DNA of 35,696 bases from NCBI GenBank assembly GCA_021158045.1, contig JAGGVK010000053.1, positions 1 through 35,696 of the forward strand, in the 5' to 3' direction. This document shows, in pieces, positions 1-35,696 of this stretch; within the stretch, counting starts at the first letter, position 1, and each line of letters begins with the position of its first letter. A model generated the notes under the pieces. That model saw only the letters and a list, made by a program, of their open reading frames with translations. It did no database searches and had not been told where the DNA came from. The position numbers were made by a program, and so were the translations under genes. This stretch comes from a bacterium. GTDB lineage: Bacteria; Patescibacteriota; Minisyncoccia; Minisyncoccales; CG1-02-41-26.

Positions 1-140
1 AGAACACCCTGATGTAGGAGAGGGGCTGGGAAGCGTGGATTCCGCTGGAAGCGGGATGACCGTAGAACCGTAGGGTCTCCCGTGTAGGAAAATATTAAAA
101 ACCGAGGGTTGTTAAAGAGTCCCGCTGAAAGCGGGACGAT
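1..140 (-). mobile_element. Partial fourth copy of the GTCGC-scaffold insertion element (cut by window edge)
   Basis: Reverse complement of 77-92 (TTTTCCTACACGGGAG) equals 9210-9225; reverse complement of 99-110 (AACCCTCGGTTT) equals 9172-9183; has CCGCTG(G/A)AAGCGG hairpins as at 11548-11564; AGGGGCTGGGA (21-31) corresponds to AGGGGTCGGGG (11460-11470). Confidence 0.65.
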
Positions 141-3186: not shown

Positions 3187-3556
3187 GAGAGCAAGTAGGC
3201 AAAGCAATCGCCGAGCATATAACGATTATGTGCCCGGAGGAAAGTCCGAACACCTTTCTGCTTCTATAAGGAAGTGGAAAAAGTGGTAGCGGGTAACACC
3301 CGTCCGCCGTGAGGCGAGAGGTGCGAACAGAGACGCCCGACTTCGAAAGGAGGAGGGTGCCCTATAAAACGAGAGATTGTCTTATAGGGTAAGTTCCCAC
3401 AGAAATGTGGGAAGTGAAACGGCTAAATCCTTACCTGGTGCAAGACCAAATTTTGGTTGGTCGCTTGATCCCGAGAGTAATCGAGGGACCAGATAAATGA
3501 TTGCTGTTCCCATCTTTATGGGAATACAGAATTCGGCTTATTGCCTGCTTGCTCTC
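3187..3556 (+). ncRNA. rnpB: RNase P RNA
   Basis: P1 pairing GAGAGCAAGTAGGCAA / TTGCCTGCTTGCTCTC; conserved GAGGAAAGTCC, AACAGA.A, GTGAAACGG, GCAAG, AGATAAATGATTG and ACAGAATTCGGCTTA. Confidence 0.96.
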
Positions 3557-6016: not shown

Positions 6017-6087
6017 GCGAGTGTAGTATAGTGGTAGTATGCAACCTTCCCAAGGTTGAGACGAGGGTTCGATTCCCTTCACTCGCT
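6017..6087 (+). tRNA. tRNA-Gly(CCC), CCA not encoded
   Basis: Acceptor GCGAGTG/CACTCGC; anticodon arm CAACC-TTCCCAA-GGTTG; T-loop TTCGATT. Confidence 0.96.
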
Positions 6088-6162: not shown

Positions 6163-6233
6163 GCCGATGTAGCTTAATGGTAAAGCAATGGTTTCGTAAA
6201 CCATCGATGGCAGTTCGATTCTGCCCATCGGCT
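6163..6233 (+). tRNA. tRNA-Thr(CGT), CCA not encoded
   Basis: Acceptor GCCGATG/CATCGGC; anticodon arm ATGGT-TTCGTAA-ACCAT; T-loop TTCGATT. Confidence 0.96.
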
Positions 6234-8180: not shown

Positions 8181-8460
8181 AAATCTCAAATCTCAAATCT
8201 CAAATCTCAAAATGACATCTCAAAATGCAAAATTAGAAAATTCAAAATGCAAAATTAGAAAAGCAAAATTTCAAATCTCAAATCTCAAAATGCAAAATTA
8301 GAATGCTTGGCTAAGCCAAGCAGCAAGAGAAAAAAGAGATTGCTTCGTCAGTCGCTTCGCTCCTTCCTCGCAATGACAGGGGGAGGAATCGCTTCGCTCA
8401 GGATGGCAATGTGGCGGATGGCGGAGCAATGAGCAAAGAGCAAAGAACATAAAAATTAGA
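8181..8460. repeat. Composite repeat A: (AAATCTC)n and CAAAATG heptamers plus a 41 bp GATTGCTTCG...CTCGCAATGACA unit
   Basis: AAATCTC x4 at 8181-8208; 8338-8378 is identical to 35459-35499 and is the reverse complement (1 mismatch) of 27574-27614 and 27936-27976. Confidence 0.9.
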
Positions 8461-8470
8461 AATTTAGAAT

Positions 8471-8935
8471 ATGGCAAAGAAATTCAAAAAAAGAGAAATC
8501 AAACCGGATATCTTATACAACAGCGTTTTGGTGGCAAAGTTTATTAACCATATAATGAAAAAGGGCAAGAAATCTTTGGCTCAGAGAATTTTGTATAGAG
8601 CTTTTGAGATTATAAAGAAGAAAACAGGGAAAGAACCGTTGGAAGTTTTTAGGAATGCTATAGAGAATGTTGGTCCAGTTATCGAAGTTAAGCCAAGAAG
8701 AGTTGGCGGAGCTACTTATCAAGTACCAGTGGAAGTTAAAAAGGAAAGAAGTGTCAGTTTAGCTATGAGGTGGATTTTGACAGCAGCAAGGTCTAGCAAG
8801 GGAAAACCAATGGAGGAAAAACTAGCTAAAGAAATAATTTCTGCTGCCAATAACGAAGGAAATGCTGTAAAAAAGAAGATTAATATTCATAGGATGGCTG
8901 AAGCCAACAGGGCTTTTGCTCATTTTGCAAGATAG
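8471..8935 (+). CDS. rpsG: 30S ribosomal protein uS7
   Basis: [23 protein letters not shown] and [13 protein letters not shown]. Confidence 0.98.
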
Positions 8936-9033
8936 GCGCAAAGCGAAAAGCGCAAAATGTAAAATAACAGCGCAAGGCCAAAAAAATTTTGAATTTTAAG
9001 TTGTTATTTTATACTTTCGCTTTTTGTTTTATG
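8936..9033. repeat. Bipartite A-rich/T-rich degenerate heptamer repeat (imperfect inverted arms)
   Basis: GCGCAAA GCGAAAA GCGCAAA ATGTAAA ATAACAG... followed by ...TTGTTAT TTTATAC TTTCGC TTTTTG. Confidence 0.6.
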
Positions 9034-9146
9034 TTTCTCTAATTGATTTCTTATCTTATATATGCCAAGATTATATCCAAATATATGCCAAGATTATATC
9101 CAATAGAAAAAACAAGAGACATTGGTATTATCGCTCATATTGATGC
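9034..9146 (+). pseudogene. Orphaned duplicate of the fusA leader and first about 21 codons
   Basis: Identical to 9270-9381 except one extra C at 9050; encodes [21 protein letters not shown] then runs into the insertion. Confidence 0.9.
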
Positions 9147-9381
9147 GTCGCAGTTAACACTGTTCCCCAGAAACCCTCGGTTTCTGGCGGTCGGCCTTCG
9201 GCCTCCCTGTTTTCCTACACGGGAGGATACCCAATCCTCCCGACCCCTCCTTGTGCATCAATATTCGCTTTTCTCTAATTGATTTTTATCTTATATATGC
9301 CAAGATTATATCCAAATATATGCCAAGATTATATCCAATAGAAAAAACAAGAGACATTGGTATTATCGCTCATATTGATGC
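9147..9381 (+). mobile_element. GTCGC-scaffold insertion 1 (fusA 5' end), including replacement gene start 9270-9381
   Basis: Starts GTCGC at the junction; 9185-9220 is identical (36 nt) to 19970-20005; 9255-9264 GCATCAATAT is the reverse complement of junction 9137-9146. Confidence 0.8.
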
Positions 9382-11425
9382 TGGTAAAACTACAGTTACT
9401 GAACGTGTTTTGTTTTACACCGGAATATCCCATAAAATTGGAGAAGTCCATAATGGAGAAGCTATTATGGATTGGATGGCTCAAGAGAAGGAAAGGGGCA
9501 TTACTATTACGTCGGCTTCAACAACTTGTCATTGGATTCCTGAAGGCTTGGAGAAGAAAAAAGAAAACGAATATCAAATAAATATTATTGATACGCCCGG
9601 TCACATTGATTTTACAGTAGAAGTTCAAAGAAGTTTACGAGTTTTAGATGGAGCTATTGTTGTTTTTGACGGTGTAGCGGGAGTTGAGCCCCAGTCGGAA
9701 ACTGTTTGGAGGCAGGCTGATAAATTTAATGTTCCTAGAATTTGTTTTGTTAACAAAATGGATAGAATGGGCGCGGATTTTGACAGAAGTTTTCAGTCAA
9801 TCATAGAAAAATTGTCGCCAAATGCTGTAGCAGTCCAAATTCCTATCGGTAAAGAGGATAAATTTGAGGGAGTGATTGACCTTATTAAAATGAAAGCATT
9901 GTATTTTGAAGGTGACTTTGGACAGGATGTTGTTGAAAAGGAAATACCAGAAAATCTAAGAGAGCAAGCAGCCCAGGCAAGAAAGGAAATGTTAGAAAAG
10001 GTAGCAGCAGAAGATGCAACTTTATTAGAAAAGTTCCTTTCAAACAAGGAAATTACCATAGATGAAATCAGGAAAGTTTTAAGAAAGAGCACTTTAAATT
10101 ATAAGCTAATACCTGTTTTTTGCGGGTCTGCCCTTAAAGATAAAGGCATACAACCTTTGTTAGACGCTGTTTGCTATTACTTGCCAAGTCCTAATGACCT
10201 CCCTCCAGTGAAAGGCACGAATCCTTTAACCGGAGATTTTGAGGAAAGGAAACACTTGGATTCTGAACCTCTGGCTGCTTTGGTGTTTAAAATTGCAACT
10301 GACCCTTATGTAGGAGCGCTTAGTTATTTTAGGATTTATTCCGGCTATCTTAGAAAGGGTTCTTATGTTTTAAATACAACGACAGGCGTTAAAGAAAGAA
10401 TAGGTAGAATATTAAGAATGCATGCCAACCAGAGAGTTGAATTAGACGAGGCTTTTGCCGGAGACATTGTGGCTACTGTTGGTCTTAAGAAAACAAGCAC
10501 TGGACACACCCTTTGCGACCCGGCTCATCCCATTGTTTTAGAGAATATTGCTTTTCCTGAGCCTGTAATCTCGGTGAGGGTAGAGCCGAAAACTCGAGCT
10601 GACCAAGAGAAATTGGTAGTGGCTTTAAAGAGGCTATCAGAAGAAGACCCCACATTTCGTATTAAAGAGGATTTAGAAACCGGAGAGACTATAATTTCGG
10701 GCATGGGGGAATTGCACCTTGAAGTTTTAACTGATAGGATGAAAAGAGAGTTTGGTGTTGTAGCCAATGTTGGCAGGCCTCAAGTGGCTTATAAGGAAAC
10801 TGTTTGCAGCGAGAGCGAGGCTGAGGGAAAGTATATTCACCAATCAGGAGGTAGGGGGCAATATGGCCATGTGTGGCTAAGAATAAAGCCAAAGGAGAGG
10901 GGAGAAGGATTTGAGTTTAAAAATGCTATTAAAGGAGGAATTATTCCTCAAGAGTTTATCCCAGCAGTTAAGAAAGGAGTAGTAGAAGCCATGGGAAAGG
11001 GAGTTCTGGCAGGTTATCCAATAGTGGATGTGGAAGTTACATTGTACGACGGTTCTTTCCACGAAGTTGACTCTTCAGAAGTTGCTTTTAAAATTGCAGC
11101 CGCAGAAGCTTTGAAGTCTGCTTCCCAAAAGGCAAAGCCCGTATTATTGGAGCCGATAATGAAAATTGAAGTTATTGTTCCTTCAGAATTCTTTGGAGAT
11201 GTTATTAGTGATTTAAACAGGAGGAGAGGCATTATTGAGGAGACAAAGGATAGGCTTAGCTTAAAAATAATTGACGCGAAAGTTCCCTTAGCGGAGATGT
11301 TTGGCTACGCTACTGGTTTGAGGTCCTTGACTCAAGGGAGAGGAACGTTTACAATGGAATTTGACAGATATGAGAAAGTACCGGAGAATATAAGTCAGGA
11401 GATAATTGAAGGTAAGAGGAAATAG
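9320..11425 (+). CDS. fusA: Elongation factor G (true start 9320)
   Basis: [41 protein letters not shown] and HEVDSSE. Confidence 0.98.
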
Positions 11426-11658
11426 TAAATTGAGAAAAGTTAAATTCCATTGTTCAGATAGGGGTCGGGGAAGAAGAATTCTTCCCCGTGGCGGAAATCT
11501 CTCTCCAAATCGCCAAAGGCGATTTGGAGGCCACATGAGGTCTCCAATTCCGCTGAAAGCGGAATTGGAGTAATAGCAGGGGTTTTAAGGAGCGAAGCGA
11601 AGCGAGGCTGAGATTGTCGAAGCCGAGCGCCTGCCAAAGGCAGGAGGAGCAGAGCGAC
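11351..11658 (-). mobile_element. GTCGC-scaffold insertion 2 (fusA 3' end, antisense), including replacement gene end 11351-11425
   Basis: GCGAC at 11654-11658 (GTCGC on - strand); scaffold collinear with 19826-20040; 11439-11453 is the reverse complement (14/15) of junction 11659-11673. Confidence 0.82.
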
Positions 11659-11733
11659 ACAATGGAATTTGACAGATATGAGAAAGTACCGGAGAATATT
11701 GCCCAGGAAATCATAGAAGGCAAAAGAAAGTAA
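11659..11733 (+). pseudogene. Orphaned second copy of the last 24 codons and stop of fusA
   Basis: First 41 nt identical to 11351-11391; last 34 nt differ at 12 positions yet encode [11 protein letters not shown] versus [11 protein letters not shown]. Confidence 0.92.
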
Positions 11734-11826
11734 AAAACTTTAATTGTTTTTATTTCATCGTGGTTTTCCTCAAGCAATTTGTTTAATGATTGGTTGAGGT
11801 AAAAAAAGCACGATTGGTTAACAATT

Positions 11827-12120
11827 ATGGAACTAGAAGACATTAGGCAGTTTGTTAATTCTAACAATGAAAAAATTATCTTAGTTGAACATGGAGAGCC
11901 AACAGTTGTTCTGATGTCTTATGAAACCTATAAGGAGTCTTTTGGCGGTAATTTTCAGGAGGGGGAGGGGAAAAGAAATGAAACAAATACAGAGGTGAAC
12001 TTAGCAGAGAAGAAGCCTTTTTTCGAATCTAACGAGCCTGAAGATTTAGTCCCTGGTGATTCTGAATTAGAAGAAGGTGAAAATTATGGAAGTATTTCTA
12101 TTGATGATTTGCCGTTTTAG
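11827..12120 (+). CDS. Small acidic protein with Phd/YefM-like N-terminus and SSB-like C-terminal DDLPF
   Basis: EKIILVEHGEPTVVLMSYETYKE resembles the Phd/YefM beta-hairpin-helix pattern; acidic low-complexity tail ending IDDLPF. Confidence 0.6.
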   Translation: MELEDIRQFVNSNNEKIILVEHGEPTVVLMSYETYKESFGGNFQEGEGKRNETNTEVNLAEKKPFFESNEPEDLVPGDSELEEGENYGSISIDDLPF

Positions 12121-12152
12121 AATATGATATCTAATGTTTATTTGTGTTTTGC

Positions 12153-12181
12153 TTGACTTTGTGATTTCTTTTTTATAGAAT
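12153..12181 (+). promoter_or_regulatory. Putative tuf promoter
   Basis: TTGACT (12153-12158), 17 nt spacer, TAGAAT (12176-12181). Confidence 0.6.
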
Positions 12182-12311
12182 AGTAAAATAGTTGAATTTT
12201 TAATTTTTGTATATTATATTAATATAATACAATAACGAAACTTAATTTGAATTTGACAACTTTTTTATAAGTTATCATTTTCAAATTTTAAGTTTTTAGT
12301 TTAAAAGTTTT

Positions 12312-13508
12312 ATGGCACAAGAAAAATTTGAGAGAAGCAAGCCGCATTTGAATATAGGCACTATTGGTCATGTTGACCATGGCAAGACTACCTTAACTGC
12401 TGCTATTCTTAAAATTGCCAAAATGAAAGGGTTTAAGTCAGAAGAAAAAGGAGTTCAGGAAATTGATTCAGCTCCAGAAGAAAAGGCCCGCGGACTTACT
12501 ATTAATATTTCTCATAATGAATTCGAAACAGCCAAACGCCATTATGCTTTAATTGATTGCCCGGGTCACGCTGATTATATTAAAAATATGGTAACTGGAG
12601 TAGCGCAGATGGATGGTGCAATTTTGGTTGTCTCAGCTGTTGATGGTCCTATGCCTCAAACAAGGGAGCATGTTCTCTTGGCGCGGCAAGTTGGTTTGCC
12701 TTCTATTGTTGTTTTTCTAAATAAAACTGACCAAGTTAATGACCCAGAAATGGTAGAATTGGTGGAATCTGAGGTTAGGGAATTGTTAAATAAGTATAAT
12801 TTTTCTGGAAAAGATACGCCAATTATCAAAGGCTCTGCCCTTCAAGCTTTGAATGTCAAATCTTTAGATGAGGAGGCGGCAAAACCGATTCTTGAATTGC
12901 TTGATACGATAGATAGTTATTTCCCAGAACCGGTAAGGGCATTGGATAAGCCGTTTTTAATGGCAATTGAGGGTGTTGTTTCAAAATCCGGCAGAGGAAC
13001 AGTTGCTACAGGGCGAGTTGAGAGAGGCATTATACACGCCGGCGACAAGGTTGAAATAGTTGGTTTGCGCCCTACGAGAGAGACGGTAGCAGTGAGCATT
13101 GAAATGTTTAGAAAGTCTTTAGATGAAGGTAGAGCAGGGGATGATATTGGAGTTTTGTTAAGAGGCCTAAAAAAAGAAGAAGTAGAGAGAGGCCAGGTTT
13201 TAGTTGCTCCGGGAACAGTAACGCCTCATTCTGAATTTGAATCAGAAGTGTATATTTTAACAAAAGAAGAAGGAGGACGCCATACGCCTTTCTTCTCTGG
13301 TTATAAGCCGCAGTTCTACATTAGAACTTGTGATGTAACTGGGGAAGCAACTCTTCCAGAGGGAACAGAGATGGTTATGCCTGGCGATACAGTCAAGTTG
13401 AAAATTAAACTGATAGTGCCAGTAGCTTTGGAAGAAAAACAAAGGTTTGCCATTAGAGAAGGCGGGAGAACTGTTGGAGCAGGCGTTGTGACCAAAATAA
13501 TCAAGTAA
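12312..13508 (+). CDS. tuf: Elongation factor Tu
   Basis: [34 protein letters not shown] and [13 protein letters not shown]. Confidence 0.99.
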
Positions 13509-13540
13509 AGAAGAAAAGTTATAAATTTGTCTAAAGGGCT

Positions 13541-13885
13541 ATGATTGCTGAAACGAAAGCTGCAAAAAAAGAAGAAGTTAAATCACGGTTGAGGGTAAAA
13601 CTGAAATCTTACGATTATAAAGTGGTAGATATGAGTTGTCACCAGATTGTAGATATGGCTTTTAGGGTTGGGGTTAAAGTAATTGGACCTATTCCTTTGC
13701 CTACGGAGACAAGAAAATACACGGTAAATAGGGCAACCTTTGTACACAAAGATTCAAGGGACCAGTTTGAAATGAGAGTCCATAAGAGATTGATAGAGAT
13801 ATTGAATCCTAACCAGAAATTTATTGAGACATTAAGAGACATTAATCTTCCAGCAGGTGTGGAGATATCAATAAAAGCAACATAG
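13541..13885 (+). CDS. rpsJ: 30S ribosomal protein uS10
   Basis: RVKLKSYD, GPIPLPT, HKDSRDQFEMRVHKRLI and LPAGV. Confidence 0.97.
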   Translation: MIAETKAAKKEEVKSRLRVKLKSYDYKVVDMSCHQIVDMAFRVGVKVIGPIPLPTETRKYTVNRATFVHKDSRDQFEMRVHKRLIEILNPNQKFIETLRDINLPAGVEISIKAT

Positions 13886-14011
13886 CCTTAGAACTTGTAA
13901 AACTGCAGGAGTTGGCAACTTTTTTGTTTTTACCATGTTATTTGAGAAAAACGAAAACTGTGTTTTAGAATTCTGAATATTTTAGCAAGAAGACTAACTT
14001 TTAAGGATAGA

Positions 14012-14046
14012 AATAGAATACCGGGAGTTAGCCCCGGTATTTTATT
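14012..14046 (+). terminator. 14 bp stem-loop between rpsJ and rplC (terminator, attenuator or leader)
   Basis: AATAGAATACCGGG-AGTTAGC-CCCGGTATTTTATT with one G-U pair and a U-rich 3' arm. Confidence 0.5.
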
Positions 14047-14081
14047 AGGGAAAGCCTAATTCTGGCAGGATTTCCAAAAGT

Positions 14082-14714
14082 ATGAAATTTATTTTAGGAA
14101 AAAAAATAGGGATGTCGCAAATTTTTAAGGAGGGGAAAATTATACCTGTTACTTTGATTGAAGCGGGTCCTTGTTTTGTGACACAGATAAAGGAAGAGAA
14201 AGGCATACAGGAATCCTCTAATAAAGGAAAGGGGAAGGGCAATGACGGATATAATGCTGTACAAGTAGGATTTGAGAGATTGGAAGGCAAAAAAGTCAAG
14301 AGAACACAGAAAGGAAAACCATTTAAACATCTAAGGGAATTTAGAACAAAAGAAATAGAGAATTATAAAGTGGGCCAGAAAATTGACCTCTCTGTTTTTA
14401 AAGAAGGAGAAAAGGTAAAAGTGTCTGGGATTTCAAAAGGAAAAGGTTTTCAAGGAGCAGTTAAAAGGTGGGGTTTTAGCGGCAGAAATGCTACTCACGG
14501 AGTAAAGCACGAACACCGAACTTTGGGTTCGGTTGGCAGTTCTTTTCCAGAAAGGGTATTAAAAGGCAAGAAGATGCCAGGGAGGATGGGATATAGGAGG
14601 GTAACTGTGAAAAATTTAGAAATAGTTAAAATTGACCAAGAGAGTAATATAATAGCGCTTAAAGGGGCTGTTCCCGGGAGAAGGGGAATGCTCCTTGAGA
14701 TTTCTAATTTCTGA
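14082..14714 (+). CDS. rplC: 50S ribosomal protein uL3
   Basis: GKKIGMSQIF, DGYNAVQVGF, SKGKGFQG and GKKMPGRMG. Confidence 0.98.
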   Translation: MKFILGKKIGMSQIFKEGKIIPVTLIEAGPCFVTQIKEEKGIQESSNKGKGKGNDGYNAVQVGFERLEGKKVKRTQKGKPFKHLREFRTKEIENYKVGQKIDLSVFKEGEKVKVSGISKGKGFQGAVKRWGFSGRNATHGVKHEHRTLGSVGSSFPERVLKGKKMPGRMGYRRVTVKNLEIVKIDQESNIIALKGAVPGRRGMLLEISNF

Positions 14715-14715
14715 T

Positions 14716-15363
14716 ATGAAAATACCTGTTTACAACCAAGAAGGGAAAGAAATAGAAAATATGGTGTTGCCTAAAGAAGTTTTTGGCATTAAGATGAATC
14801 TTGATTTAGTGCACCAAGTAGTTGTTTCCCAAATGGCAAATAGGAGGAAACCGATAGCGCATACGAAGGATAGAGGGGAAGTAAGGGGTGGCGGTAGAAA
14901 GCCTTGGCGCCAGAAGGGCACAGGAAGGGCAAGGGCCGGTTCAAATAGGTCTCCTATATGGATTGGCGGTGGAGTTACTTTTGGCCCCCGTAAGGAGAAG
15001 AAATTCAAAAAGAGAATTCCCAAGAAGATGAAGCGGAAAGCTCTTTTTATGGTACTTTCTGAGAAAGCAAGAAGAAATCAAATAGTTTTATTGGATAAGT
15101 TTGATATTAAGAACATAAAGACAAAAATTGTTTTTAATGTTTTAAGCAAGATTCCTTTAGAATCTCGAAATGCCTTGATTATCCTGCCTAAATATGATAA
15201 AAATATTATTCTCTCTTCCCGAAATATCCCTAAGATAGACACTTGCCAGGCGAAAGATATTAACGCTTTGGATATTCTGTCTTTCAAGTATTTAGTGATG
15301 CCAAAAGAATCAATAAAAGTGATAAAAGAGACGTTTGTAAAAAAGCCAAAAAGCGGAGATTAA
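14716..15363 (+). CDS. rplD: 50S ribosomal protein uL4 (true start 14716)
   Basis: TKDRGEVRGGGRKPWRQKGTGRARAGS and GGGVTFGP. Confidence 0.98.
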   Translation: MKIPVYNQEGKEIENMVLPKEVFGIKMNLDLVHQVVVSQMANRRKPIAHTKDRGEVRGGGRKPWRQKGTGRARAGSNRSPIWIGGGVTFGPRKEKKFKKRIPKKMKRKALFMVLSEKARRNQIVLLDKFDIKNIKTKIVFNVLSKIPLESRNALIILPKYDKNIILSSRNIPKIDTCQAKDINALDILSFKYLVMPKESIKVIKETFVKKPKSGD

Positions 15364-15479
15364 GCATAGGGGAAGCAAGAGTTGTTTGTTGCCTTTTTGC
15401 ATTATTATTTCTAGCGCAGGATAGAAGTAATTAATTTCTACTTCTTAATATTTTTTCATTATATGTTTGAATTTTTACT

Positions 15480-16031
15480 ATGCCTTTATTAAACATTTTT
15501 AAAAAAAAGAAAGAGAGGAAGGAAAAGAAAAAGGAGAAAGAAGGGGAAGAAAAGGGCAGGTTGGCAAAACCGGCAAAAGAGAACACGGAGAAGATAAACA
15601 TCAAAGAAGCTGTAAAAAGCAAAGGAAAAAGAATTGTTGAGAAAGAGAAAAAGGAAACAAAAGGAAAAGCAAGAAAAAAAGAACCGAATGTCAAGAAAAA
15701 AGAAAAGTTGATTGAAGAAACACCCCTGGCAAAGAAGAGAAAACCTTATCCTTTTGCTTACAGGATTTTGAAGAGCCCTCATATAACTGAGAAGGCTACT
15801 TTATTAGCAGGGAGAAATAAATATGTTTTTAGAACTTATCCGAAAGCGAATAAAACAGAGATTAAAAAGGCGGTAGAGAGCATTTATAATGTAGAAGTGG
15901 TTTCAGTAAGGACAATTCATATTCCTTCAAAGAAAAAGCGATTGATGGCCCAAGAGGGACGAAAGAGTGGTTACAAAAAAGCAATAGTGACCTTAAAAAG
16001 GGGCCAGGAAATAGAAATATTACCAAGGTAA
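15480..16031 (+). CDS. rplW: 50S ribosomal protein uL23 with about 90 aa Lys/Glu-rich N-terminal extension
   Basis: P.ITEKA, NKYVF, ANKTEIKKAVE and YKKAIVTL in the C-terminal half; no internal Met before the core. Confidence 0.95.
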   Translation: MPLLNIFKKKKERKEKKKEKEGEEKGRLAKPAKENTEKINIKEAVKSKGKRIVEKEKKETKGKARKKEPNVKKKEKLIEETPLAKKRKPYPFAYRILKSPHITEKATLLAGRNKYVFRTYPKANKTEIKKAVESIYNVEVVSVRTIHIPSKKKRLMAQEGRKSGYKKAIVTLKRGQEIEILPR

Positions 16032-16097
16032 AAGAGTTGATTGCCAGAAATCTGTAGAGAGGTTTAGAGGTTATTTGTTAAATAAAGATTTTCAAAT

Positions 16098-16877
16098 ATG
16101 GAAAAAATTTTAACTAAAAAGAAGCCTGAGAAAAGTTTATTAAAACCGCTTAAAAAGACAGGCGGAAGAAATATATCTGGCAAGATTACTGTTCGCCATA
16201 GAGGAGGAGGAGTAAAACGTCTTTATAGGATAGTTGATTTTAAAATGACAAAGATGGGTGAGAAAGCAAAAGTTATTGCTTTGGAATACGACCCTAATAG
16301 AACTAGTTTTATTGCCTTGATAGAATATCCAACAGGAGCGCGTAGTTATATTATAGCTCCACAAGGGTTGAAGGTGGGCAGAGAGGTAGAGTTTGGTGAA
16401 AAAGTTTCCCTCTCAATTGGCAATCGAATGAAACTTAAAAATATTCCTGTTGGAACTTTTGTTTATAATATTGAGATGAGCCCAAATGGAGGAGGAAAGA
16501 TTGCCAGAGCAGCTGGAAATTCTTGCCAAGTTATATCACAAGAGGAAAAATATACTGTTTTAAAAATGCCCTCAGGGGAACAGAGAAGAATTTTAGGCAA
16601 TTGCTTTGCCTCAATAGGGGTAGTTTCCAATGCAGGGCATCGTTTTCAGAAGATCGGCAAAGCAGGAATAATGCGTTTAAAGGGAAGAAGGCCAGTGGTA
16701 CGAGGGTCAGCTATGAATCCTTGTGACCATCCTCATGGAGGAGGAGAGGGAAGAAGTCCTATTGGGCTTTCCCATCCCAAAACTCCTTGGGGAAAACCGG
16801 CTTTGGGAGTAAAAACAAGAAAGAAGAAAAAGTGGACAAATAAGCTTATTATTAAAAGAAGAAGAAAAAAAAGATAA
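16098..16877 (+). CDS. rplB: 50S ribosomal protein uL2 (short N-terminus)
   Basis: GKITVRHRGGG, EYDPNR and VRGSAMNPCDHPHGGGEG. Confidence 0.98.
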   Translation: MEKILTKKKPEKSLLKPLKKTGGRNISGKITVRHRGGGVKRLYRIVDFKMTKMGEKAKVIALEYDPNRTSFIALIEYPTGARSYIIAPQGLKVGREVEFGEKVSLSIGNRMKLKNIPVGTFVYNIEMSPNGGGKIARAAGNSCQVISQEEKYTVLKMPSGEQRRILGNCFASIGVVSNAGHRFQKIGKAGIMRLKGRRPVVRGSAMNPCDHPHGGGEGRSPIGLSHPKTPWGKPALGVKTRKKKKWTNKLIIKRRRKKR

Positions 16878-16886
16878 TCAAAATAT

Positions 16887-17198
16887 ATGGCACGCTCACT
16901 TAAAAAGGGTCCTTATGTTGACCCAAAGCTGTTAAAAAAATTGGCTAAATTGAAGCAGGGAGATAGTACGGTAATCAAAACTTGGTCCAGAGCCTCAACG
17001 ATAACACCGGAGATGGTAGGTTTTAATTTTGGTGTTTATAATGGCAAAGAGCATATTAAAGTTTATATTACTGAGGACATGGTGGGGCATAAGCTTGGTG
17101 AGTTTGCTCCTACTACTGTTTTTCATAGGCATGGTGGAAAAATGCAGAGGGAGATAGAAACAAAAGCAAAGGCAAAGGAAAACCAGAAAGCAAAATAG
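16887..17198 (+). CDS. rpsS: 30S ribosomal protein uS19
   Basis: [17 protein letters not shown] and [12 protein letters not shown]. Confidence 0.98.
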
Positions 17199-17238
17199 GA
17201 CTTTGCGTGAGGAATGAAAACTAATTATTTGTTATACT

Positions 17239-17856
17239 ATGGAGATAAAGGCAAAATTAAAATATTTGCATATAAGCCCAAGAAAGGTTAGGATGGTAGC
17301 GGATTTAATTCGAGGGAGAGATGTAAATCAAGCGAAAGCTCTCTTGGAATTTACTATTAAAAGAGGAGGGGTGCCATTGAAAAAATTGTTAGGTTCGGCT
17401 GTAGCCTCCGCGCGCCATAATTTTCAGTTAGAGGAAGACAATTTGTATATTTCAGAAATAAATGTTACCGAAGGCCCAAAGCTTAAAAGATACAGGGCTC
17501 GTTCTCATGGACAAGCATATTTGATTCAAAAGAAGACATCCCATATTACTTTAGTTCTTCGAGAGAAAGAGGAAAAAGCAAAGAAAACGCCATCAAAAGG
17601 GAAAGAGCCAACTCAAGCAGCAGCGAGAGCGGAAGAAAAAATTGAAAAACAATTGGATAAGAAAGAGGAAGGAAAAATAGAAAATGCAGCAAAAATAGAG
17701 CAGAAATCTTCCTCCCAAAGTTTGAAAGTTCCACGAGTATCTGAAAAGCCTACAAAAACTAAGAAATTGGAAAGAAAAAACAAAGAGAGAAAATCTTGGA
17801 AGAAAAAGAGAGAAAAGAAAAATTGGAGAAAAGTTTTTAGGAGAAAAGCATTTTAA
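17239..17856 (+). CDS. rplV: 50S ribosomal protein uL22 with about 95 aa C-terminal extension
   Basis: ISPRKVRMVADLIRG, GPKLKRYRAR and KKTSHITLVL, then a K/E-rich tail ending FRRKAF. Confidence 0.97.
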   Translation: MEIKAKLKYLHISPRKVRMVADLIRGRDVNQAKALLEFTIKRGGVPLKKLLGSAVASARHNFQLEEDNLYISEINVTEGPKLKRYRARSHGQAYLIQKKTSHITLVLREKEEKAKKTPSKGKEPTQAAARAEEKIEKQLDKKEEGKIENAAKIEQKSSSQSLKVPRVSEKPTKTKKLERKNKERKSWKKKREKKNWRKVFRRKAF

Positions 17857-17951
17857 GGCTTATGGAAAAACTCGTAAATTTCAATTTTAGATTGCCTTTT
17901 TCCTATACTGCTTGCTTTCATTTAATAGAGTTATTAAGGATTTTGTAATAT

Positions 17952-18608
17952 ATGAGCCATAAAACTAATCCAAAAGTATTAAGAGTGAGAGGCTTAAAAG
18001 ACTGGCTAAGTAGAGGCTATTATGGTAAGAATTTAGCCCCGGTCCTTGAAGAGGATTTAAAAATCCGTAATTTTTTGCAGAAGAAATTGTCATCAGCAGC
18101 TGTTGAAAATATAGAAATTGAAAGGTCAGGCTCTTTATTAAAAGTTATTATTAACACTGCAAGACCGGCTTTAGTTATTGGTAGAGGGGGGAGGGATGTT
18201 GAAAGGTTACAGAAATCCTTGAAAAAGATTGTTGAAGAGCCTTCTGCGAAAAAGAGTTCAAGGGTTCAGCAAGTTAAGATTGAAATTAAGGAGGTAAAGA
18301 ATTTTTGGGAATCTCCAAATTTATGTGCTCAATGGATTAGCCAGCAATTAGAAAAAAGAGTGCCATACAGGAAAGTATTAAAAATGGCTTTATCTAAAAT
18401 AATGGCTCAAAAGGCAGTGAAAGGGGCTAAGGTTGAAGTTTCCGGGCGGTTAAATGGAGTGGAGATTGCTAGAACTGAGTGGTTGGGAGAAGGGCAATTG
18501 CCCAGAACCACTCTTAGGGCTGTAGTAGATTATGGTTTTCAACAAGCCTATTGCAAGTATGGAGTTATAGGTGTGAAAGTTTGGATTTACAAAGGTGAAA
18601 GAAAATAG
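17952..18608 (+). CDS. rpsC: 30S ribosomal protein uS3
   Basis: IEIER, TARPALVIG, SGRLNGVEIARTE and YGVIGVKVWIY. Confidence 0.98.
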   Translation: MSHKTNPKVLRVRGLKDWLSRGYYGKNLAPVLEEDLKIRNFLQKKLSSAAVENIEIERSGSLLKVIINTARPALVIGRGGRDVERLQKSLKKIVEEPSAKKSSRVQQVKIEIKEVKNFWESPNLCAQWISQQLEKRVPYRKVLKMALSKIMAQKAVKGAKVEVSGRLNGVEIARTEWLGEGQLPRTTLRAVVDYGFQQAYCKYGVIGVKVWIYKGERK

Positions 18609-18689
18609 AGGTTTTATGTATGCCATATTGTTTGTAATAAACTGAAATTTTTATTATAGTTTAGTTTTAAGAATTCGGGAATAATTAGT

Positions 18690-19106
18690 ATGTGGGAGCC
18701 AAGGAAGACAAAATTTAAAAAGCAGCAGAAAGGAAGAAGTAGAAAGCGCCTCAAAGAATTAAAGGGAGTAGAACTGTCGTTTGGCAGTTTTGGGATGCAA
18801 GCTCAAGATGCCTGCTGGTTGACAACTCATCAGCTTGAGGCAGTTAGGCGTGTTTTGCTTAGGTACTTAAAGAAGAGAGGAAAATTTTGGTTTAGGATAT
18901 TTCCCCAAAAACCCATTACATCTAAAGGGAATGAAGTGCCGATGGGGGGCGGTAAAGGGGCAGTTGTTGATTATGTGGTGCCAGTGCGTCCTGGAAGGAT
19001 TATTGTTGAAATAGACGGGGTAGAGGAAGGTTTGGCAAAAGAAATTATAAAACAGGCGTCAGCTAAACTGCCTATTAAAGTAAAGTTTATAAAGCGCCTT
19101 TTATGA
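18690..19106 (+). CDS. rplP: 50S ribosomal protein uL16
   Basis: PRKTKFKKQQKG, RIFPQKPIT, MGGGKG and KLPIK. Confidence 0.97.
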   Translation: MWEPRKTKFKKQQKGRSRKRLKELKGVELSFGSFGMQAQDACWLTTHQLEAVRRVLLRYLKKRGKFWFRIFPQKPITSKGNEVPMGGGKGAVVDYVVPVRPGRIIVEIDGVEEGLAKEIIKQASAKLPIKVKFIKRLL

Positions 19107-19315
19107 AAAAGAAAGAAAAAATTAGGGAGTTCTCACGTTTAGGGAAAGATGAACTTCAACAACTATTGATAAAACAGAGTTGGAAGTTGCACCAGCTTAG
19201 ATTTGACCTTGCTTCAGGCAAGGTTAGGGATATAAGGATTATAAAGGAGACAAAGAAGGACGTTGCCAGAATTAAAACACTTCTTAAGACGAAAGAAAAA
19301 GGTTTGAAACATTAA
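19103..19315 (+). CDS. rpmC: 50S ribosomal protein uL29
   Basis: LRFDLASG and KKDVARIKTLL; ATGA overlap with rplP. Confidence 0.93.
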   Translation: MKKKEKIREFSRLGKDELQQLLIKQSWKLHQLRFDLASGKVRDIRIIKETKKDVARIKTLLKTKEKGLKH

Positions 19316-19359
19316 GGAATTTATTTTTGAGAGAAAAAAGGCATAAATTGGTTTCAAAT

Positions 19360-19388
19360 TTGACATTATTTACAAATTCTGTTTTAAT
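19360..19388 (+). promoter_or_regulatory. Putative internal promoter upstream of rpsQ
   Basis: TTGACA (19360-19365), 17 nt spacer, TGt-TTTAAT. Confidence 0.45.
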
Positions 19389-19420
19389 CTATCTAGTGAG
19401 TTGAGTAAAAAAGAAAGCAT

Positions 19421-19696
19421 ATGCCAAAAAAGCGTTTAATCGGAACTATTATATCTAATAAAATGCAGAAGACAGTTGTTGTAAAAGTGGAAAGGTTAAA
19501 GCAGCACCCGAAGTATAAAAGAAGATATAAAGTTCATAAAAAATATAAAGCCCATATTGAAAAGGACTTAGGGTTTAAAGTTGGGGATAAAGTTGTGATT
19601 GAGGAATGCAGGCCAATTAGTAAAGACAAAAGATGGAGAGTGGTAAGCAAATTGAAAAGCGAAAAACCGCAGAGCAAGATTGAAAAAGAGAATTAA
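19421..19696 (+). CDS. rpsQ: 30S ribosomal protein uS17
   Basis: [14 protein letters not shown] and [18 protein letters not shown]. Confidence 0.97.
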
Positions 19697-19757
19697 TTTA
19701 ATTTTAGATTTTAGATTGTCATTTTTCATTTTTCATTTTTCATTTTTAATTTTCATT
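19649..19757 (+). repeat. Repeat overlapping the rpsQ 3' end, followed by (TTTTCAT)n
   Basis: 19672-19705 is identical (34 nt) to 23800-23833 at the rpsE 3' end; both are preceded by AAATTGAAAAG.GAAA and followed by TTAGATTGTCATTTTTCATTTTTCA. Confidence 0.88.
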
Positions 19758-19786
19758 TGGCTGAGCCCGCTTTAGCGGGACGAAGG

Positions 19787-19825
19787 AATATGATTCAACC
19801 AGGAACAAAATTGAAAGTAGCTGAT
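19787..19825 (+). pseudogene. Orphaned duplicate of the first 12 codons of rplN
   Basis: 39 nt identical to 20105-20143 (MIQPGTKLKVAD); preceded by AAGGA. Confidence 0.9.
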
Positions 19826-20143
19826 GTCGCTTGCCCTCCTGCCTTCGGTAGGCGCTCACTTCATTCGCTTCGCTCCCCAGAAACCCAGCTTTTACTCCAA
19901 TTCCGCTTCAGCGGAATTGGAGGCCACTTGTGGTCTCCAAATTCGCTTTTTGCGAATTTGGAGTATGTTTGGCGGTCGGCCTTCGGCCTCCCTGTTTTCC
20001 TACACAGGGGAGAATTCTTCTCCCCTGACACCCCTTTGCATCAGCTACTTTTGCCTTATTGACTTTAACTGAATTTAAATTTATTTTAGAAACATTATAG
20101 ACTAAATATGATTCAACCAGGAACAAAATTGAAAGTAGCTGAT
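19826..20143 (+). mobile_element. GTCGC-scaffold insertion 3 (rplN 5' end), including replacement start 20105-20143
   Basis: Starts GTCGC at the junction; shares modules with both fusA elements; 20040-20051 ATCAGCTACTTT is the reverse complement of junction 19814-19825. Confidence 0.82.
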
Positions 20144-23328: not shown

Positions 23329-23811
23329 ATGTTTCACAATAAAAGAGAACCAAAAATTAAAAGCGAATACGAATCTGAGCTTTTAGACTTAGCAAGGGTA
23401 ACCCGAGTTACTGCTGGAGGAAAGCAGCTTAGGTTTCGAGCAGTTGTTGTTGTTGGCAATAAGAAAGGGAAAGTTGGGGTGGGGGTATCTAAAGGGACTG
23501 ATGTTGGAAAGGCCATAGAAAAGGCTACAAGATTAGCAAAGAAAAATATAGTAGAAATTCCTATTGTTGAAAATGGCATACCTTATGTGACAGAGGCTAA
23601 ATATAGTTCCTCGAGAGTTTTGATTCGCCCTCAAAGTCAAGGCAGGGGGCTTGTGGCCGGAGGACCAGTGAGAGTAGTATGTAGGTTGTTGGGGCTGAAA
23701 GATATATCTGCTAAAATATTGTCGAAATCAAGAAACAAGTTGACCATTGCTAGAGCAACAATAAAAGCATTGGAGAAATTGAAAAGTGAAACTCGAGCGG
23801 AGCAAGATTGA
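23329..23811 (+). CDS. rpsE: 30S ribosomal protein uS5
   Basis: RVTRVTAGGK.LRFRAVVVVGN and GLVAGGPVR. Confidence 0.97.
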   Translation: MFHNKREPKIKSEYESELLDLARVTRVTAGGKQLRFRAVVVVGNKKGKVGVGVSKGTDVGKAIEKATRLAKKNIVEIPIVENGIPYVTEAKYSSSRVLIRPQSQGRGLVAGGPVRVVCRLLGLKDISAKILSKSRNKLTIARATIKALEKLKSETRAEQD

Positions 23812-23942
23812 AAAAGAGAATTAATTTAATTTTGGATTTTAATTATCATTTTTAGATTGTCATTTTTCATTTTTCACTTTTCATTTTTCATTTTTAATTT
23901 AATTTGATTTTAGATTGTCATTTTTCATTTTTCATTTTTAAT
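23776..23942 (+). repeat. Repeat overlapping the rpsE 3' end plus (TTTTCAT)n, in the slot usually held by rpmD
   Basis: Same element as 19649-19757; TTTTAGATTGTCATTTTTCATTTTTCA occurs twice. Confidence 0.88.
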
Positions 23943-27522: not shown

Positions 27523-28012
27523 GTCGTTACAATGAGCCTTCCTCTCTTGTCATTGCGAGGAGTCTTCCTCTCTTGTCATTGCGAGGAAGGAGCGCAGCGA
27601 CTGACGAAGCAATCTCTTACGCCTGTCATCACAAGAGCTGTAGCATCCCTTAGCCACGAGCGAAGCGTGATGGGACAGGCAGTAAAAATGAAAGATGAAA
27701 AGTGAAAAATGAAAAACTAAAATCTAAAATTAAAAGAAACTTTGCATTTTGAATTGTCATTTTGAGATTTGAGATTTGAGATTTGAGATTTAACTGGGGT
27801 TCTTCGCTTAACGGCTCAGAATGACAATTGGTAGTTGTTCCATAACGAAGCAATGAGATTGCCGCGTCGTCCCGCCTTCGGCGGAACTCCTCGCAATGAC
27901 AAAAAGGAGCATCATTGTGAGGAACCTCCCTCTCTTGTCATTGCGAGGAAGGAGCGCAGCGACTGACGAAGCAATCTCTTTCCCTCTGTCATCTGAGCGA
28001 AGCGAAGTATCT
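27523..28012. repeat. Composite repeat B: several GTCATTGCGAGG palindromic units, (ATGAAA)-type and (GAGATTT)n arrays
   Basis: 41 bp units at 27574-27614 and 27936-27976; 27791-27909 is the reverse complement of 35560-35678 with 6 mismatches in 119 nt. Confidence 0.92.
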
Positions 28013-35199: not shown

Positions 35200-35696
35200 A
35201 TTGTTATTCTGAGCCGTTAGGCGAAGAACCCCAGTTAAATCTCAAATCTCAAATCTCAAATCTCAAAATCACCCTGAAGCAGAACAAGTTCGCTACAGGG
35301 CAGGCAATTCGAAATTCAAAATTACATAGAAAGTTCTAAATCCGAAATCCCAAACAAAACTAAATGAGAAATCAAAAATCAAAAATCTAAAGGGCGTTGC
35401 TTAGCTAAGCTAAGCAACGCCCAAAGTAGCGCTCCACTCAGGATGACAGAGGAAAAGGGATTGCTTCGTCAGTCGCTTCGCTCCTTCCTCGCAATGACAA
35501 GAGGGAGAATCGCTTCGCTCCTTCCTCGCAATGACAGGGAGGGAGAGAACTGCAATAACCTCCTTTTTGTCATTGCGAGGAGCTCCGCCGAAGGCGGGAC
35601 GACGCGGCAATCTCATAGCTTCGTCATGGAACGACCACCAATTGTCATTCTGAGCCGTTAGGCGAAGAACCCCAGTTAAATCTCAAATCTCAAATC
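35200..35696. repeat. Composite repeat C (runs off the window)
   Basis: TTCTGAGCCGTTAGGCGAAGAACCCCAGTTAAATCTCAAATCTC occurs twice (about 35207 and 35648); contains 41 bp units; inverted homolog of repeat B and same orientation as repeat A. Confidence 0.92.

Follow-up and report, generated by a model that had tools for sequence, protein, structure and literature searches.

A family of tiny, probably mobile non-coding elements lying between duplicated gene ends in Patescibacteria

Genomic islands that carry an integrase, prophages, and non-autonomous elements derived from either, enter tRNA or protein genes and restore the interrupted gene with the copy carried at attP. In group II introns, the EBS of the intron pairs with the IBS of the exon, and the attC sites of integrons and the attP hairpin of the CTX phage are recombination sites made of folded single strands. 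The window considered here (the whole stretch of DNA that was analysed, 35,696 nucleotides long) contains three short insertions, c1, c2 and c3, each composed of a folded scaffold, a short link and a variable segment (X) that is antisense to the flank touching the scaffold, and each bordered by two copies of a host gene end, one displaced (A) and one working (A').

The elements resemble integrase islands in lying between direct repeats of a gene end, with the gene intact and one copy apparently foreign, in their frequent use of tRNA T-loops and in the occurrence of tandem arrays and circle-type permutations, but they are only 60–300 nt long and geneless, a single scaffold family serves dozens of unrelated targets, an antisense segment pairs with the junction, and no integrase follows them, only a universal Xer-like enzyme. 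Likenesses to IS110/IS1111 elements and their bridge (seek) RNAs are found in a folded non-coding part with a variable stretch fitting the target, a circular intermediate (putative in the present case) and the lack of a classical target duplication rule, whereas the elements described here have a matching segment of their own in each copy and long gene-end repeats; an IS110 recombinase was detected in only three of 39 related genomes, two of them element-free, and the elements had no match in an Rfam search. As in group II introns, 8–15 nt inside the element pair just upstream of the insertion point and the 5' end is GT, but the elements are far too small, have no domain V/VI-like parts and are accompanied by no reverse transcriptase in the five genomes searched for one, and their gene is restored by a second DNA copy rather than by splicing. 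Hairpins that vary in sequence while conserving structure, a stem mimicking a duplex target and strict Watson-Crick pairing, consistent with DNA, recall attC and the CTX attP, but the targets are many rather than attI or dif, and the conserved unpaired strands are unlike attC. Small repeats of bacteria such as MITEs and REPINs are likewise non-coding, multi-copy, structured, patchily distributed and apt to break assemblies, whereas these elements have neither terminal inverted repeats nor a short fixed target duplication, carry host gene ends and are tracked neither by a parent transposase nor by a HUH gene of the RAYT type. Homing introns and free-standing endonucleases with co-conversion also occupy the same conserved site across lineages and bring in a foreign flank, but no endonuclease gene is linked to the elements and the insertion is not spliced out.

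Table 1. Features of the four scaffold copies in the window (positions on the window; A, displaced copy; A', working copy).
Feature	Position	Strand	Details
c1 A, fusA upstream region and first 21 codons (dead)	9034–9146	+	ends in ATATTGATGC
c1 scaffold	9147–9248	+	94.7 bits, E 2e-21; GTCGC 9147–9151; GACCCCT ends 9248
c1 scaffold, order of parts			GTC, P2 hairpin, P3 (CCAGAAACC/GGTTTCTGG), P4 hairpin, junction strand TGTTTTCCTACAC, P5 hairpin, GACCCCT
c1 link and X	9249–9264	+	link CCTTGT 9249–9254; X GCATCAATAT 9255–9264, reverse complement of 9137–9146, 10/10
c1 A', fusA upstream region and start	9265–9381	+	ATG 9320
c2 A', working fusA 3' end (11351–11429), and short spacer to X	11351–11438	-	stop codon 11423–11425
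c2 X and link	11459–11439	-	X ACAATGGAATTTAAC 11453–11439, pairs 14/15 with 11673–11659; link ATCTGA 11459–11454
c2 scaffold	11460–11658	-	54.1 bits; GTCGC 11658–11654; GACCCCT ends 11460
c2 A, old fusA 3' end	11659–11737	-	frame still open, ends TAA
c3 A, rplN start (ATG and 11 codons)	19787–19825	+	repeat
c3 scaffold	19826–20035	+	55.7 bits; GTCGC 19826–19830; GACACCCCT ends 20035
c3 link and X	20036–20051	+	link TTGC; X ATCAGCTACTTT 20040–20051, 12/12 (13/13 counting the preceding C)
c3 spacer and A', working rplN start (20105–20143)	20052–20143	+	ATG 20108
Fourth, diverged scaffold at contig start	21–117	-	39 bits, E 1.8e-7

The preliminary description of this DNA had reported three insertions with duplicated flanks and antisense matches, all of which were recovered at the same places and with the same match counts (Table 1). 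The direct repeat of c1 (9048–9146 and 9283–9381) is 99 nt long with one difference (99% identity), and A' continues directly into the rest of fusA, which encodes a 701-aa EF-G and ends at 11425. The c2 repeats (11351–11429 and 11659–11737) are 84% identical, with 11 nucleotide differences and one amino-acid change, and those of c3 (19787–19825 and 20105–20143) are 100% identical. The c2 scaffold has a long P2 and a P3 holding two extra hairpins; c3 combines these same two hairpins with the P4 of c1. The spacer of c3 is unlike the resident upstream DNA and contains a promoter-like TTGACT-17-TATTTT at 20059–20087, a consensus match only. When folded with flank and X, the three copies had z-scores of -7.0 (c1), -8.9 (c2) and -8.9 (c3), none of 200 shuffles being as good, and in each of them the flank:X pairing is the closure of the entire predicted fold. 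The core of the fourth scaffold recurs identically at positions 21–117 of C52, another contig from this genome.

The layout shared by the three copies extends well beyond this window, as searches of other genomes, proposed earlier, revealed. The scaffold is present in 17 of 39 genomes from the same family as the source, with 1–18 copies each, in 11 of 151 genomes sampled across the phylum, and on at least 119 further contig stretches from Patescibacteria-type assemblies; a scan of the 39 related genomes with the core pattern gave 46 sites in 15 genomes, and the reversed pattern gave none. The core consists of helices P3 and P5, with P2 and P4 optional, and of the conserved unpaired strands, the junction strand and GACCCCT. 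P3 and P5 covary strongly, 94.6% of cells being paired against 78.8% in shuffles in an alignment that had been fitted to the model and is thus biased toward structure; double-sided changes occur at 16 of 17 P3/P5 pairs, and sliding the partners by 1–3 columns lowers pairing to 33–74%. Dozens of assemblies, produced by different projects, show this layout, and 31 of 165 non-redundant copies have it in strict form (an exact X of at least 8 nt whose partner is present once more downstream, together with direct repeats of at least 16 nt); a quick sorter left 87 copies without a class. In most strict-layout copies the direct repeat stops at the junction, and duplications range from 16 to about 130 nt. 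X was expected to covary with the flank, and many independent copies from other genomes bear this out: comparing the 30 nt after GACCCCT with 200 nt upstream in 148 usable non-redundant copies gave exact complements of at least 9 nt in 36, against 4.7 expected with swapped partners, and of at least 11 nt in 19, against 0.3. The targets are the ends of fusA, gyrB and ribosomal-protein genes, and tRNA T-loops. The family apparently has not been described so far: the first reading recognized no named family, Rfam offered none, and no account of such elements was found in the literature searched.

The working gene end is, as had been proposed, the copy adjoining the variable segment, so that the carried copy restores the gene. 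The associated polarity, sense at gene starts and antisense at gene ends, also held: of the 24 cases examined (c3 among them being read by eye), four at 5' ends were sense and 16 at 3' ends antisense, while four were ambiguous and none was clearly opposite. A finding that goes beyond the preliminary description is that the differences between the displaced and the working gene end are for the most part synonymous: in 11 copy pairs with at least three differences each (81 nucleotide differences in all), 17 codons change an amino acid, against 59.4 expected under random substitution (2000 simulations, minimum 48). Such divergence implies that one copy derives from another lineage, and one gene end of each pair is therefore probably foreign, judging from these sequence comparisons. 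The gyrB pair of locus L013 has nine coding differences and no amino-acid change; the congener G028 provides the empty site that had been suggested as a comparison, and the working copy of L013 matches it at eight sites, the dead copy at two or three.

Permuted copies adjoin tRNA genes in genome G000 (contigs C14, C43 and C9/C30). They begin with the full tRNA, the 3' strand of P5, GACCCCC, P3 and P4, and continue with the junction strand, the 5' strand of P5 and a 3' fragment of the tRNA; C43 has two such units in tandem. This is the order predicted for an integrating circle with a tRNA fragment in the P5 loop, and it lends support to an alternative raised in the preliminary description, namely that an excised circle contains a folded recombination substrate which the pairing closes. 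The following model may be proposed. Next to the scaffold, the element would carry a conserved fragment of a host gene (a gene start, a gene end or the 3' part of a tRNA), which would occupy a hairpin loop whose stem, in the type seen in the window, would be formed by X and the inner end of the fragment. Integration would occur by recombination within the gene fragment, most simply from a putative small circle or from a tandem intermediate equivalent to it, and probably through host functions with no dedicated enzyme. It would split the hairpin, leaving the gene-joined working end beside X and a useless second copy beside the GTC end, and movement between lineages would make one of the two gene-end copies foreign. 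X would thus mark, as a closing stem, the edge of the exchanged segment, rather than act as a freely programmable guide. This explanation as a whole, a widespread family of tiny (about 60–300 nt), non-coding, non-autonomous mobile elements of Patescibacteria that integrate by homology as folded circles, is tentatively preferred to a guided enzyme acting in trans, with a probability of about 0.45. Homologous recombination alone leaves the origin of X and its match to each new target unexplained, and a double-stranded circle of 150–400 bp would be unusually small.

Guided insertion seems unlikely, although several observations favour it. On this reading X, as an RNA or single-stranded DNA guide, would pair with the target and direct a remotely encoded enzyme to join the GTC end beside it, and the gene end that is carried along would be cargo making the insertion survivable. 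In its favour are the matches between X and its own flank described above. Near-identical scaffolds carry unrelated X segments (c1, L004 and L019, for example, agree wholly or almost wholly in P5). In tRNA-targeting copies, X crosses the junction and extends about 7 nt into the T-loop past the repeat, as recognition of an intact target would explain better than a simple stem. The fusA 3' junctions of four genomes, which are independent, lie 3–10 nt apart and all within about 12 nt, hinting at a choice of site beyond homology, and the gyrB junctions of three genomes agree to about 1 nt. However, about three quarters of the copies have no flank-matching segment, and their fold is closed by sequence of the element itself. 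X may serve as a stem that closes the structure and not as a free guide. The intact target rebuilt beside X would also be attacked again and again by a guide-directed nuclease or recombinase. The helices contain 22 G:U and 15 A:C cells, and this lack of a wobble signal does not support the RNA nature that had been suggested; a fold at the DNA level is at least as likely. Nor does any of the tested enzymes postulated to act in trans follow element presence. The search covered six families and was confined to five genomes for all but one of them: RVT_1 was found in none of the five, four of which are element-rich (the same search was positive in three of 14 control genomes), the TnpB domain in none, Y1 HUH in one and serine recombinase in two, one of these element-free; the IS110 recombinase has been dealt with above, and the Xer-like tyrosine recombinase, the only universal one, is also carried by element-free genomes. 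Within 2.5 kb of the 165 copies there is no cluster of enzyme-like genes; an enzyme, if one acts, may be novel, unlinked or phage-borne. A helix-turn-helix ORF occurs near five copies (four loci), with nothing linking it to the elements.

The remaining explanations are less probable than either homology-directed or guided integration. An assembly artefact, in which collapsed strain mixtures create false tandem duplications, is extremely improbable: the source genome was assembled from a metagenome, in 54 contigs of which several end inside elements, but the layout is repeated across projects, the two copies have often diverged, so that no collapse into one would be expected, and four runs contain most of a 3-kb stretch, 65–95% of the words of positions 8900–11900 being present there as contigs, with these runs, all from one study, as the sole assembly support; no RNA run contains the stretch. 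Copying of the element, as RNA or DNA, into nicked targets by reverse transcription or template switching would make the long duplications and the inverted X by-products of staggered nicks and snap-back synthesis, with X a footprint and not a cause. The variable duplication length, unlike the fixed stagger of a transposase, and the inversion of X, as expected of a templated by-product, are in its favour, and two 5'-truncated copies between repeats (L012 and L050) would fit such a copy-in mechanism better; it is nevertheless quite improbable, given the RVT_1 result, the mostly synonymous differences, which would not be expected of a duplication made in place, and the permuted copies, which it does not predict. 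It is improbable, too, that the elements are useful host signals (terminators, promoters, processing sites or stabilisers, in RNA or DNA) that are moved passively, the duplications arising through ordinary recombination and the pairing being a regulatory stem over the gene end. The copies do adjoin highly expressed genes (fusA in 15 copies, and also gyrB, nusG, ribosomal-protein genes and tRNAs), P4 followed by TGTTTT is terminator-like (a consensus match only, as is the promoter-like site in the c3 spacer), and one subfamily adjoins the start codons of rplT, nusA, rpsR and groL. Against this stand the foreign origin of one gene-end copy, the interruption and rebuilding of essential genes, needless for a pure regulator, and a distribution that is patchy even within the source family, with copies also scattered over many unrelated sites, arrayed in tandem or placed at the ends of contigs.

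The safest statement to be made about the three insertions in the window (c1, c2 and c3) is that they belong to a new and widespread family of mobile elements, tiny and non-coding, that occupy the ends of conserved genes and tRNAs and bring a replacement gene end along when they move between lineages. The shared layout attributed to the insertions in the preliminary description was borne out on reading all three sites. On the element strand, a host flank (A, the displaced, dead copy of the gene end) is followed by GTCGC, successive hairpins, the TTTCC..CAC stretch, a hairpin with a GGG...CCC stem and GAC(A)CCCT, and then by a link of 4–6 nt, a variable antisense segment (X), a second, working copy of the flank (A') and the remainder of the gene. 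X is indeed the reverse complement of the last 10, 12–13 and 15 nt of A (matches of 10/10, 12/12 and 14/15), and direct repeats were recovered by an independent repeat search (D7, 99 nt, 99%; D10, 79 nt, 84%; D18, 39 nt, 100%). One window copy breaks fusA after codon 21, a second hit in this gene is antisense and lies 25 codons ahead of the stop, and rplN is broken after codon 12 by one copy. When flank and X are included, the predicted folds of c1–c3 are far more stable than those of shuffled sequences, each being closed as a whole by the flank:X pairing. The start-codon region of fusA also contains a 23-nt tandem duplication, made up of two ATGCCAAGATTATATCCAA units, the first of which runs into a stop. 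Both the dead and the working copies have this duplication, which is therefore older than their separation.

The scaffold is composed of hairpins or helices P2–P5, with P3 and P5 as the core, between the GTC end and GACCCCT. The core pattern was found at 46 sites, spread over 15 of the 39 genomes taken from the same taxonomic family, and the reversed pattern at none in these 39 genomes. A covariance model spanning P3, the junction strand, P5 and GACCCCT was built from 22 compact copies, with a structure supplied by hand, as the RNAalifold consensus gave only part of the helices. A search of this kind, suggested in the preliminary description, extended the family to other genomes, with matches in 17 of the 39 genomes of the taxonomic family (14 matches fall in the window's own genome, many of them at the ends of contigs) and in 11 of 151 genomes of a phylum-wide sample. 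A stricter pattern was matched by at least 119 contig stretches, the titles of these records referring to Patescibacteria/Parcubacteria-type assemblies or “bacterium” bins. Once duplicates were removed, 165 copies remained. An extra match on contig C31 of the window's genome in the first motif scan lies within the end of rpsM and is due to chance, and the single match among viral contigs (L077, 28 bits, in a high-GC phage intergenic region) was also taken as chance. A diverged scaffold subfamily has an added hairpin within P5 and a leader with GGGAGGTAATC beside an antisense start codon; several contigs of the window's genome start or end inside its members, indicating that the elements break the assembly.

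In the two helices, 94.6% of cells were paired across 86 aligned matches, versus 78.8% in shuffles, in an alignment fitted to the model, which favours the structure. Changes on both sides were seen in 16 of the 17 pairs of this alignment, and the covariation signal was lost when the partners were slid. Wobble pairs are scarce and without strand bias (22 G:U cells versus 15 A:C cells), so the wobble test settles neither the strand nor the RNA form, and the strict Watson-Crick pairing is at least as compatible with a DNA fold as with an RNA one. The run search returned no RNA sequencing runs containing window positions 8900–11900. The scaffold core measures 62–90 nt, with two to four simple hairpins. 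At two places in the window, the P4 hairpin is followed by TCCCTGTTTT, which resembles an intrinsic terminator by consensus match only.

An exact complement of at least 9 nt, linking the 30 nt that follow GACCCCT to the 200 nt upstream, was present in 36 of the 148 copies with enough flank, against 4.7 expected with partners swapped; at 11 nt or more, the figures were 19 and 0.3. The claimed covariation of X with the flank thus exceeds expectation, but does not extend to the whole family, as about three quarters of the copies have no flank-matching X. The full layout, strictly defined, is found in 31 of the 165 copies. In most of these, (G/A)TCGC lies directly after the upstream partner of X or 2–3 nt further on, and the end of the flanking repeat (16 to about 130 nt long) coincides with the junction. 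The targets include the 5' end of fusA, the 3' end of fusA in four genomes, with junctions 3–10 nt apart and therefore separate origins, and the 3' end of gyrB, hit in three genomes at positions that agree to about 1 nt. Other targets are pgk, rplR, rpsD, rpmB, rpsG, rpsI, rplN, a histidine kinase gene and many tRNA genes, which are cut in the T-loop. The polarity previously claimed, sense at gene starts and antisense at a gene end, also stood: of 23 computed cases and c3, which was read by eye, 4 lie at gene starts in sense and 16 at gene ends in antisense orientation, 4 are ambiguous, and no case clearly contradicts the rule. In all clear cases, the working gene copy lies on the side of X, and the useless one on that of the GTC end. 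In tRNA copies of the ordinary form, X extends about 7 nt beyond the repeat end into the T-loop, and so matches the intact target across the junction. A comparison of the match of X to the working and dead copies was dropped as biased by the definition of X.

The differences between the two copies of the gene end are mostly silent in the reading frame, with 11 coding nucleotide differences but a single amino-acid change in c2 (fusA), 9 and none at the gyrB locus L013, and 8 and one at a second gyrB locus, L048. Over 11 pairs, 81 nucleotide differences alter the amino acid in only 17 codons, whereas random substitution (2000 trials) gave a mean of 59.4 changed codons, with a minimum of 48. A duplicate that arose in place and then decayed would lack this silent pattern. 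Both copies must instead have diverged inside working genes, so that one of the two gene ends was imported from a different lineage. In c2, identity is complete over the 41 nt by the junction and falls to 71% over the next 38 nt, a step that looks like a recombination end point. Comparison with relatives, which had been proposed as a check, yielded an empty site at L013 in a genome of the same genus (G028). The working copy at L013 has 8 sites in common with this empty site and the dead copy 2–3, so that either copy may be the import.

Several other forms of the element exist. In 32 copies, the link is directly followed by a terminal hairpin of the element's own, one of which, with a 17-bp stem, is common to about a dozen copies in a single genome (G001). 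In a start-codon subfamily, a conserved leader of 18–20 nt abuts the opposite-strand starts of rplT, nusA, rpsR and groL; the pattern used for this subfamily was too strict, and a rough class sorter placed 87 of the 165 copies in the class “other”. Permuted copies adjoin tRNA genes on contigs C14, C43 and C9/C30 of the window's genome, with two units in tandem on C43. A complete tRNA is followed by the P5 3' strand, GACCCCC, P3, P4, the junction strand, the P5 5' strand and a tRNA 3' fragment. This is the order expected from a circle with a tRNA fragment in the P5 loop recombining with a tRNA gene. The window type may result from the same operation, with a gene fragment held in a hairpin, the stem of which would consist of X and the inner end of the fragment. 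Some tRNA-type copies have an insert of 10–22 nt (C...TCGCTTCGCTC...TA) in the flank half of the closing stem, where it falls between GGATTC and GAACCT. There is no intact tRNA gene near the insert-bearing copies, which thus seem to carry both T-arm-derived stem halves. The motif TCGCTTCGCTCC of a separate, GC-rich intergenic repeat family also fills P2/P4 loops and short inserts at the tRNA junctions of elements.

We favour, with a probability of roughly 0.45, integration by recombination inside the carried gene fragment. The source would be a small circular or tandem intermediate, X would be the closing stem marking the edge of the exchanged segment, and host recombination functions would carry out the exchange. 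The main rival, possible but doubtful, is that X is a true guide read by an as yet unknown enzyme; in its favour, the X of tRNA-type copies reaches across the junction, the insertion points are tightly clustered, and recombination in the carried fragment does not explain the joint origin of a new X and a new fragment. The guided enzyme acting in trans that had been proposed earlier found no counterpart in a survey of six families in five genomes (four element-rich and one element-free, with IS110 searched for in 39), none of which tracks the elements. The TnpB domain was absent from the five genomes, Y1 HUH transposase (Y1_Tnp) was found in one and serine recombinase in two, one of them element-free. 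Tyrosine recombinases (PF00589, the generic Phage_integrase family), judged to be putatively Xer-like, gave one or two matches in each of the five, including the element-free G031. The IS110 recombinase domain (PF01548) occurs in three of the 39 genomes, the window's own and the element-free G003 and G032, and is lacking in 16 of the 17 element-bearing genomes. The IS110-family gene in the window's genome was rejected as a partner, because contigs C28 and C26 have the same repeat context but no such gene, and there is no family-wide association. Clustering of all ORFs up to 2.5 kb from the 165 copies yielded housekeeping genes only (fusA beside 15 copies), plus one helix-turn-helix ORF, and no ORF-bearing relative of the element. 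The helix-turn-helix ORF, near 5 copies at 4 loci, was also rejected, its Pfam HTH matches being below cut-offs.

A copy-in mechanism is unlikely, given the silent-site pattern between the gene-end copies and the lack of any match to reverse transcriptase (RVT_1) in the five genomes or within 2.5 kb of the copies. A purely regulatory role does not fit a distribution that is patchy, multi-copy and gene-interrupting. A more far-reaching proposal, improbable as it stands, is a minimal form of nucleic-acid-guided integration, in which a scaffold of about 60–100 nt would hold a fragment in a loop, an antisense clamp of 8–18 nt would site the exchange, and host functions or an unknown small enzyme would perform it; such a system would be retargetable by swapping clamp and fragment, and would be spreading in the smallest bacterial genomes by way of their most conserved genes.

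No described Rfam family matches the elements. At gathering scores, Rfam 15 gave only RNase P and two tRNAs over the whole window, and with E values up to 10, only weak matches were obtained over the elements between 9000 and 20400 (Clostridiales-2, 21.9 bits, cut-off 58.6; KDPG-aldolase, 20.3 bits, cut-off 54.6; mir-932, 21 bits). The titles and abstract openings returned by a full-text literature search contained no description of such elements. Target matching is common to the elements and IS110/IS1111, but the elements have no DEDD recombinase. IS200/IS605 elements, defined by Y1 HUH and/or TnpB, neither of which the elements have, insert 3' of a 4–5 nt site without duplication, whereas the elements carry repeats of 16–130 nt. 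Group II introns also match their target sequence, but no reverse transcriptase/maturase was found in the five genomes, the small scaffold core is unlike their six-domain ribozyme, and there was no Rfam intron match. The closing inverted repeat followed by G recalls the a1/a2 repeats that close the msr-msd of retrons beside the branching G, but no reverse transcriptase was found in the five genomes or in the 2.5 kb around copies. The permuted copies and the conserved junction strands may hint at a self-cleaving ribozyme, a class with no match in Rfam. Unlike MITEs, which have a related autonomous IS and a target duplication that is short and of fixed length, the copies inspected share no terminal inverted repeats, and their repeats vary from 16 to about 130 nt. 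The elements resemble integrative elements with attL/attR in having direct repeats at gene ends and an intact gene. Integrase-borne islands that rebuild their target gene are closest in working, but the elements serve many targets, and are only 60–300 nt long, and no helper integrase was identified for them in the five genomes.

The elements represent a new mode of existence for selfish DNA inside essential genes, occupying fusA, gyrB, ribosomal-protein genes and tRNAs by bringing a replacement end, in host genomes of 0.5–1 Mb with almost no spare room. If X directs integration, they would be among the smallest target-matching integration devices known, and of interest for genome engineering. 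If they spread by recombination alone, they would be a marker of frequent DNA exchange among Patescibacteria lineages, and conserved gene ends could act as portable homology arms. They also create pseudo-fragments of marker genes and break assemblies, several contigs of the window's genome ending within them, and the foreign gene ends can distort marker-gene phylogenies.

Coordinates of the elements and other features (contigs are those of the window's genome; L-numbers are loci holding element copies)
Feature	Location	Positions	Details
c1	window	9147-9381 (+)	
c2	window	11658-11351 (-)	
c3	window	19826-20143 (+)	
Tandem duplication at fusA start	window	about 9061-9106; about 9296-9341	
P4 hairpin, then TCCCTGTTTT	window	9189-9212; 19974-19997	
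Diverged scaffold subfamily	window	21-117 (-)	
Diverged scaffold subfamily	C52	21-117	
Diverged scaffold subfamily	C28	12132-12228	
Diverged scaffold subfamily	C26	10733-10814	
Diverged scaffold subfamily	C4	contig end	
Insert in closing stem	C6	24150-24400	
Insert in closing stem	C25	15200-15371	
Insert in closing stem	L005, L019, L074		
GC-rich repeat with TCGCTTCGCTCC	window	8332-8399; 27550-27618; 27912-27980; 35453-35557	intergenic
AT-rich repeat	window	19669-19758; 23797-23886	intergenic, 78% identical
Stops in AT-rich repeat	window	19694-19696; 23809-23811	TAA; TGA
IS110-family recombinase gene	C4	6690-7910	407 aa; PF01548, E 3.5e-34
Helix-turn-helix ORF	L095	5475-6161	228 aa; N-terminal helix-turn-helix
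RNase P RNA	window	3192-3555	134 bits, ordinary
tRNA-Gly(CCC)	window	6017-6087	ordinary
tRNA-Thr(CGT)	window	6163-6233	ordinary

About 30 nt beyond the IS110-family gene, AT-rich repeats and an element copy are present at the contig end. The helix-turn-helix ORF at L095 is flanked by two inverted element copies within a tRNA cluster, and its relatives are found near copies at three other loci. The AT-rich intergenic repeat of the window overlaps the last codons of two different genes and provides the stops of both, in different frames.
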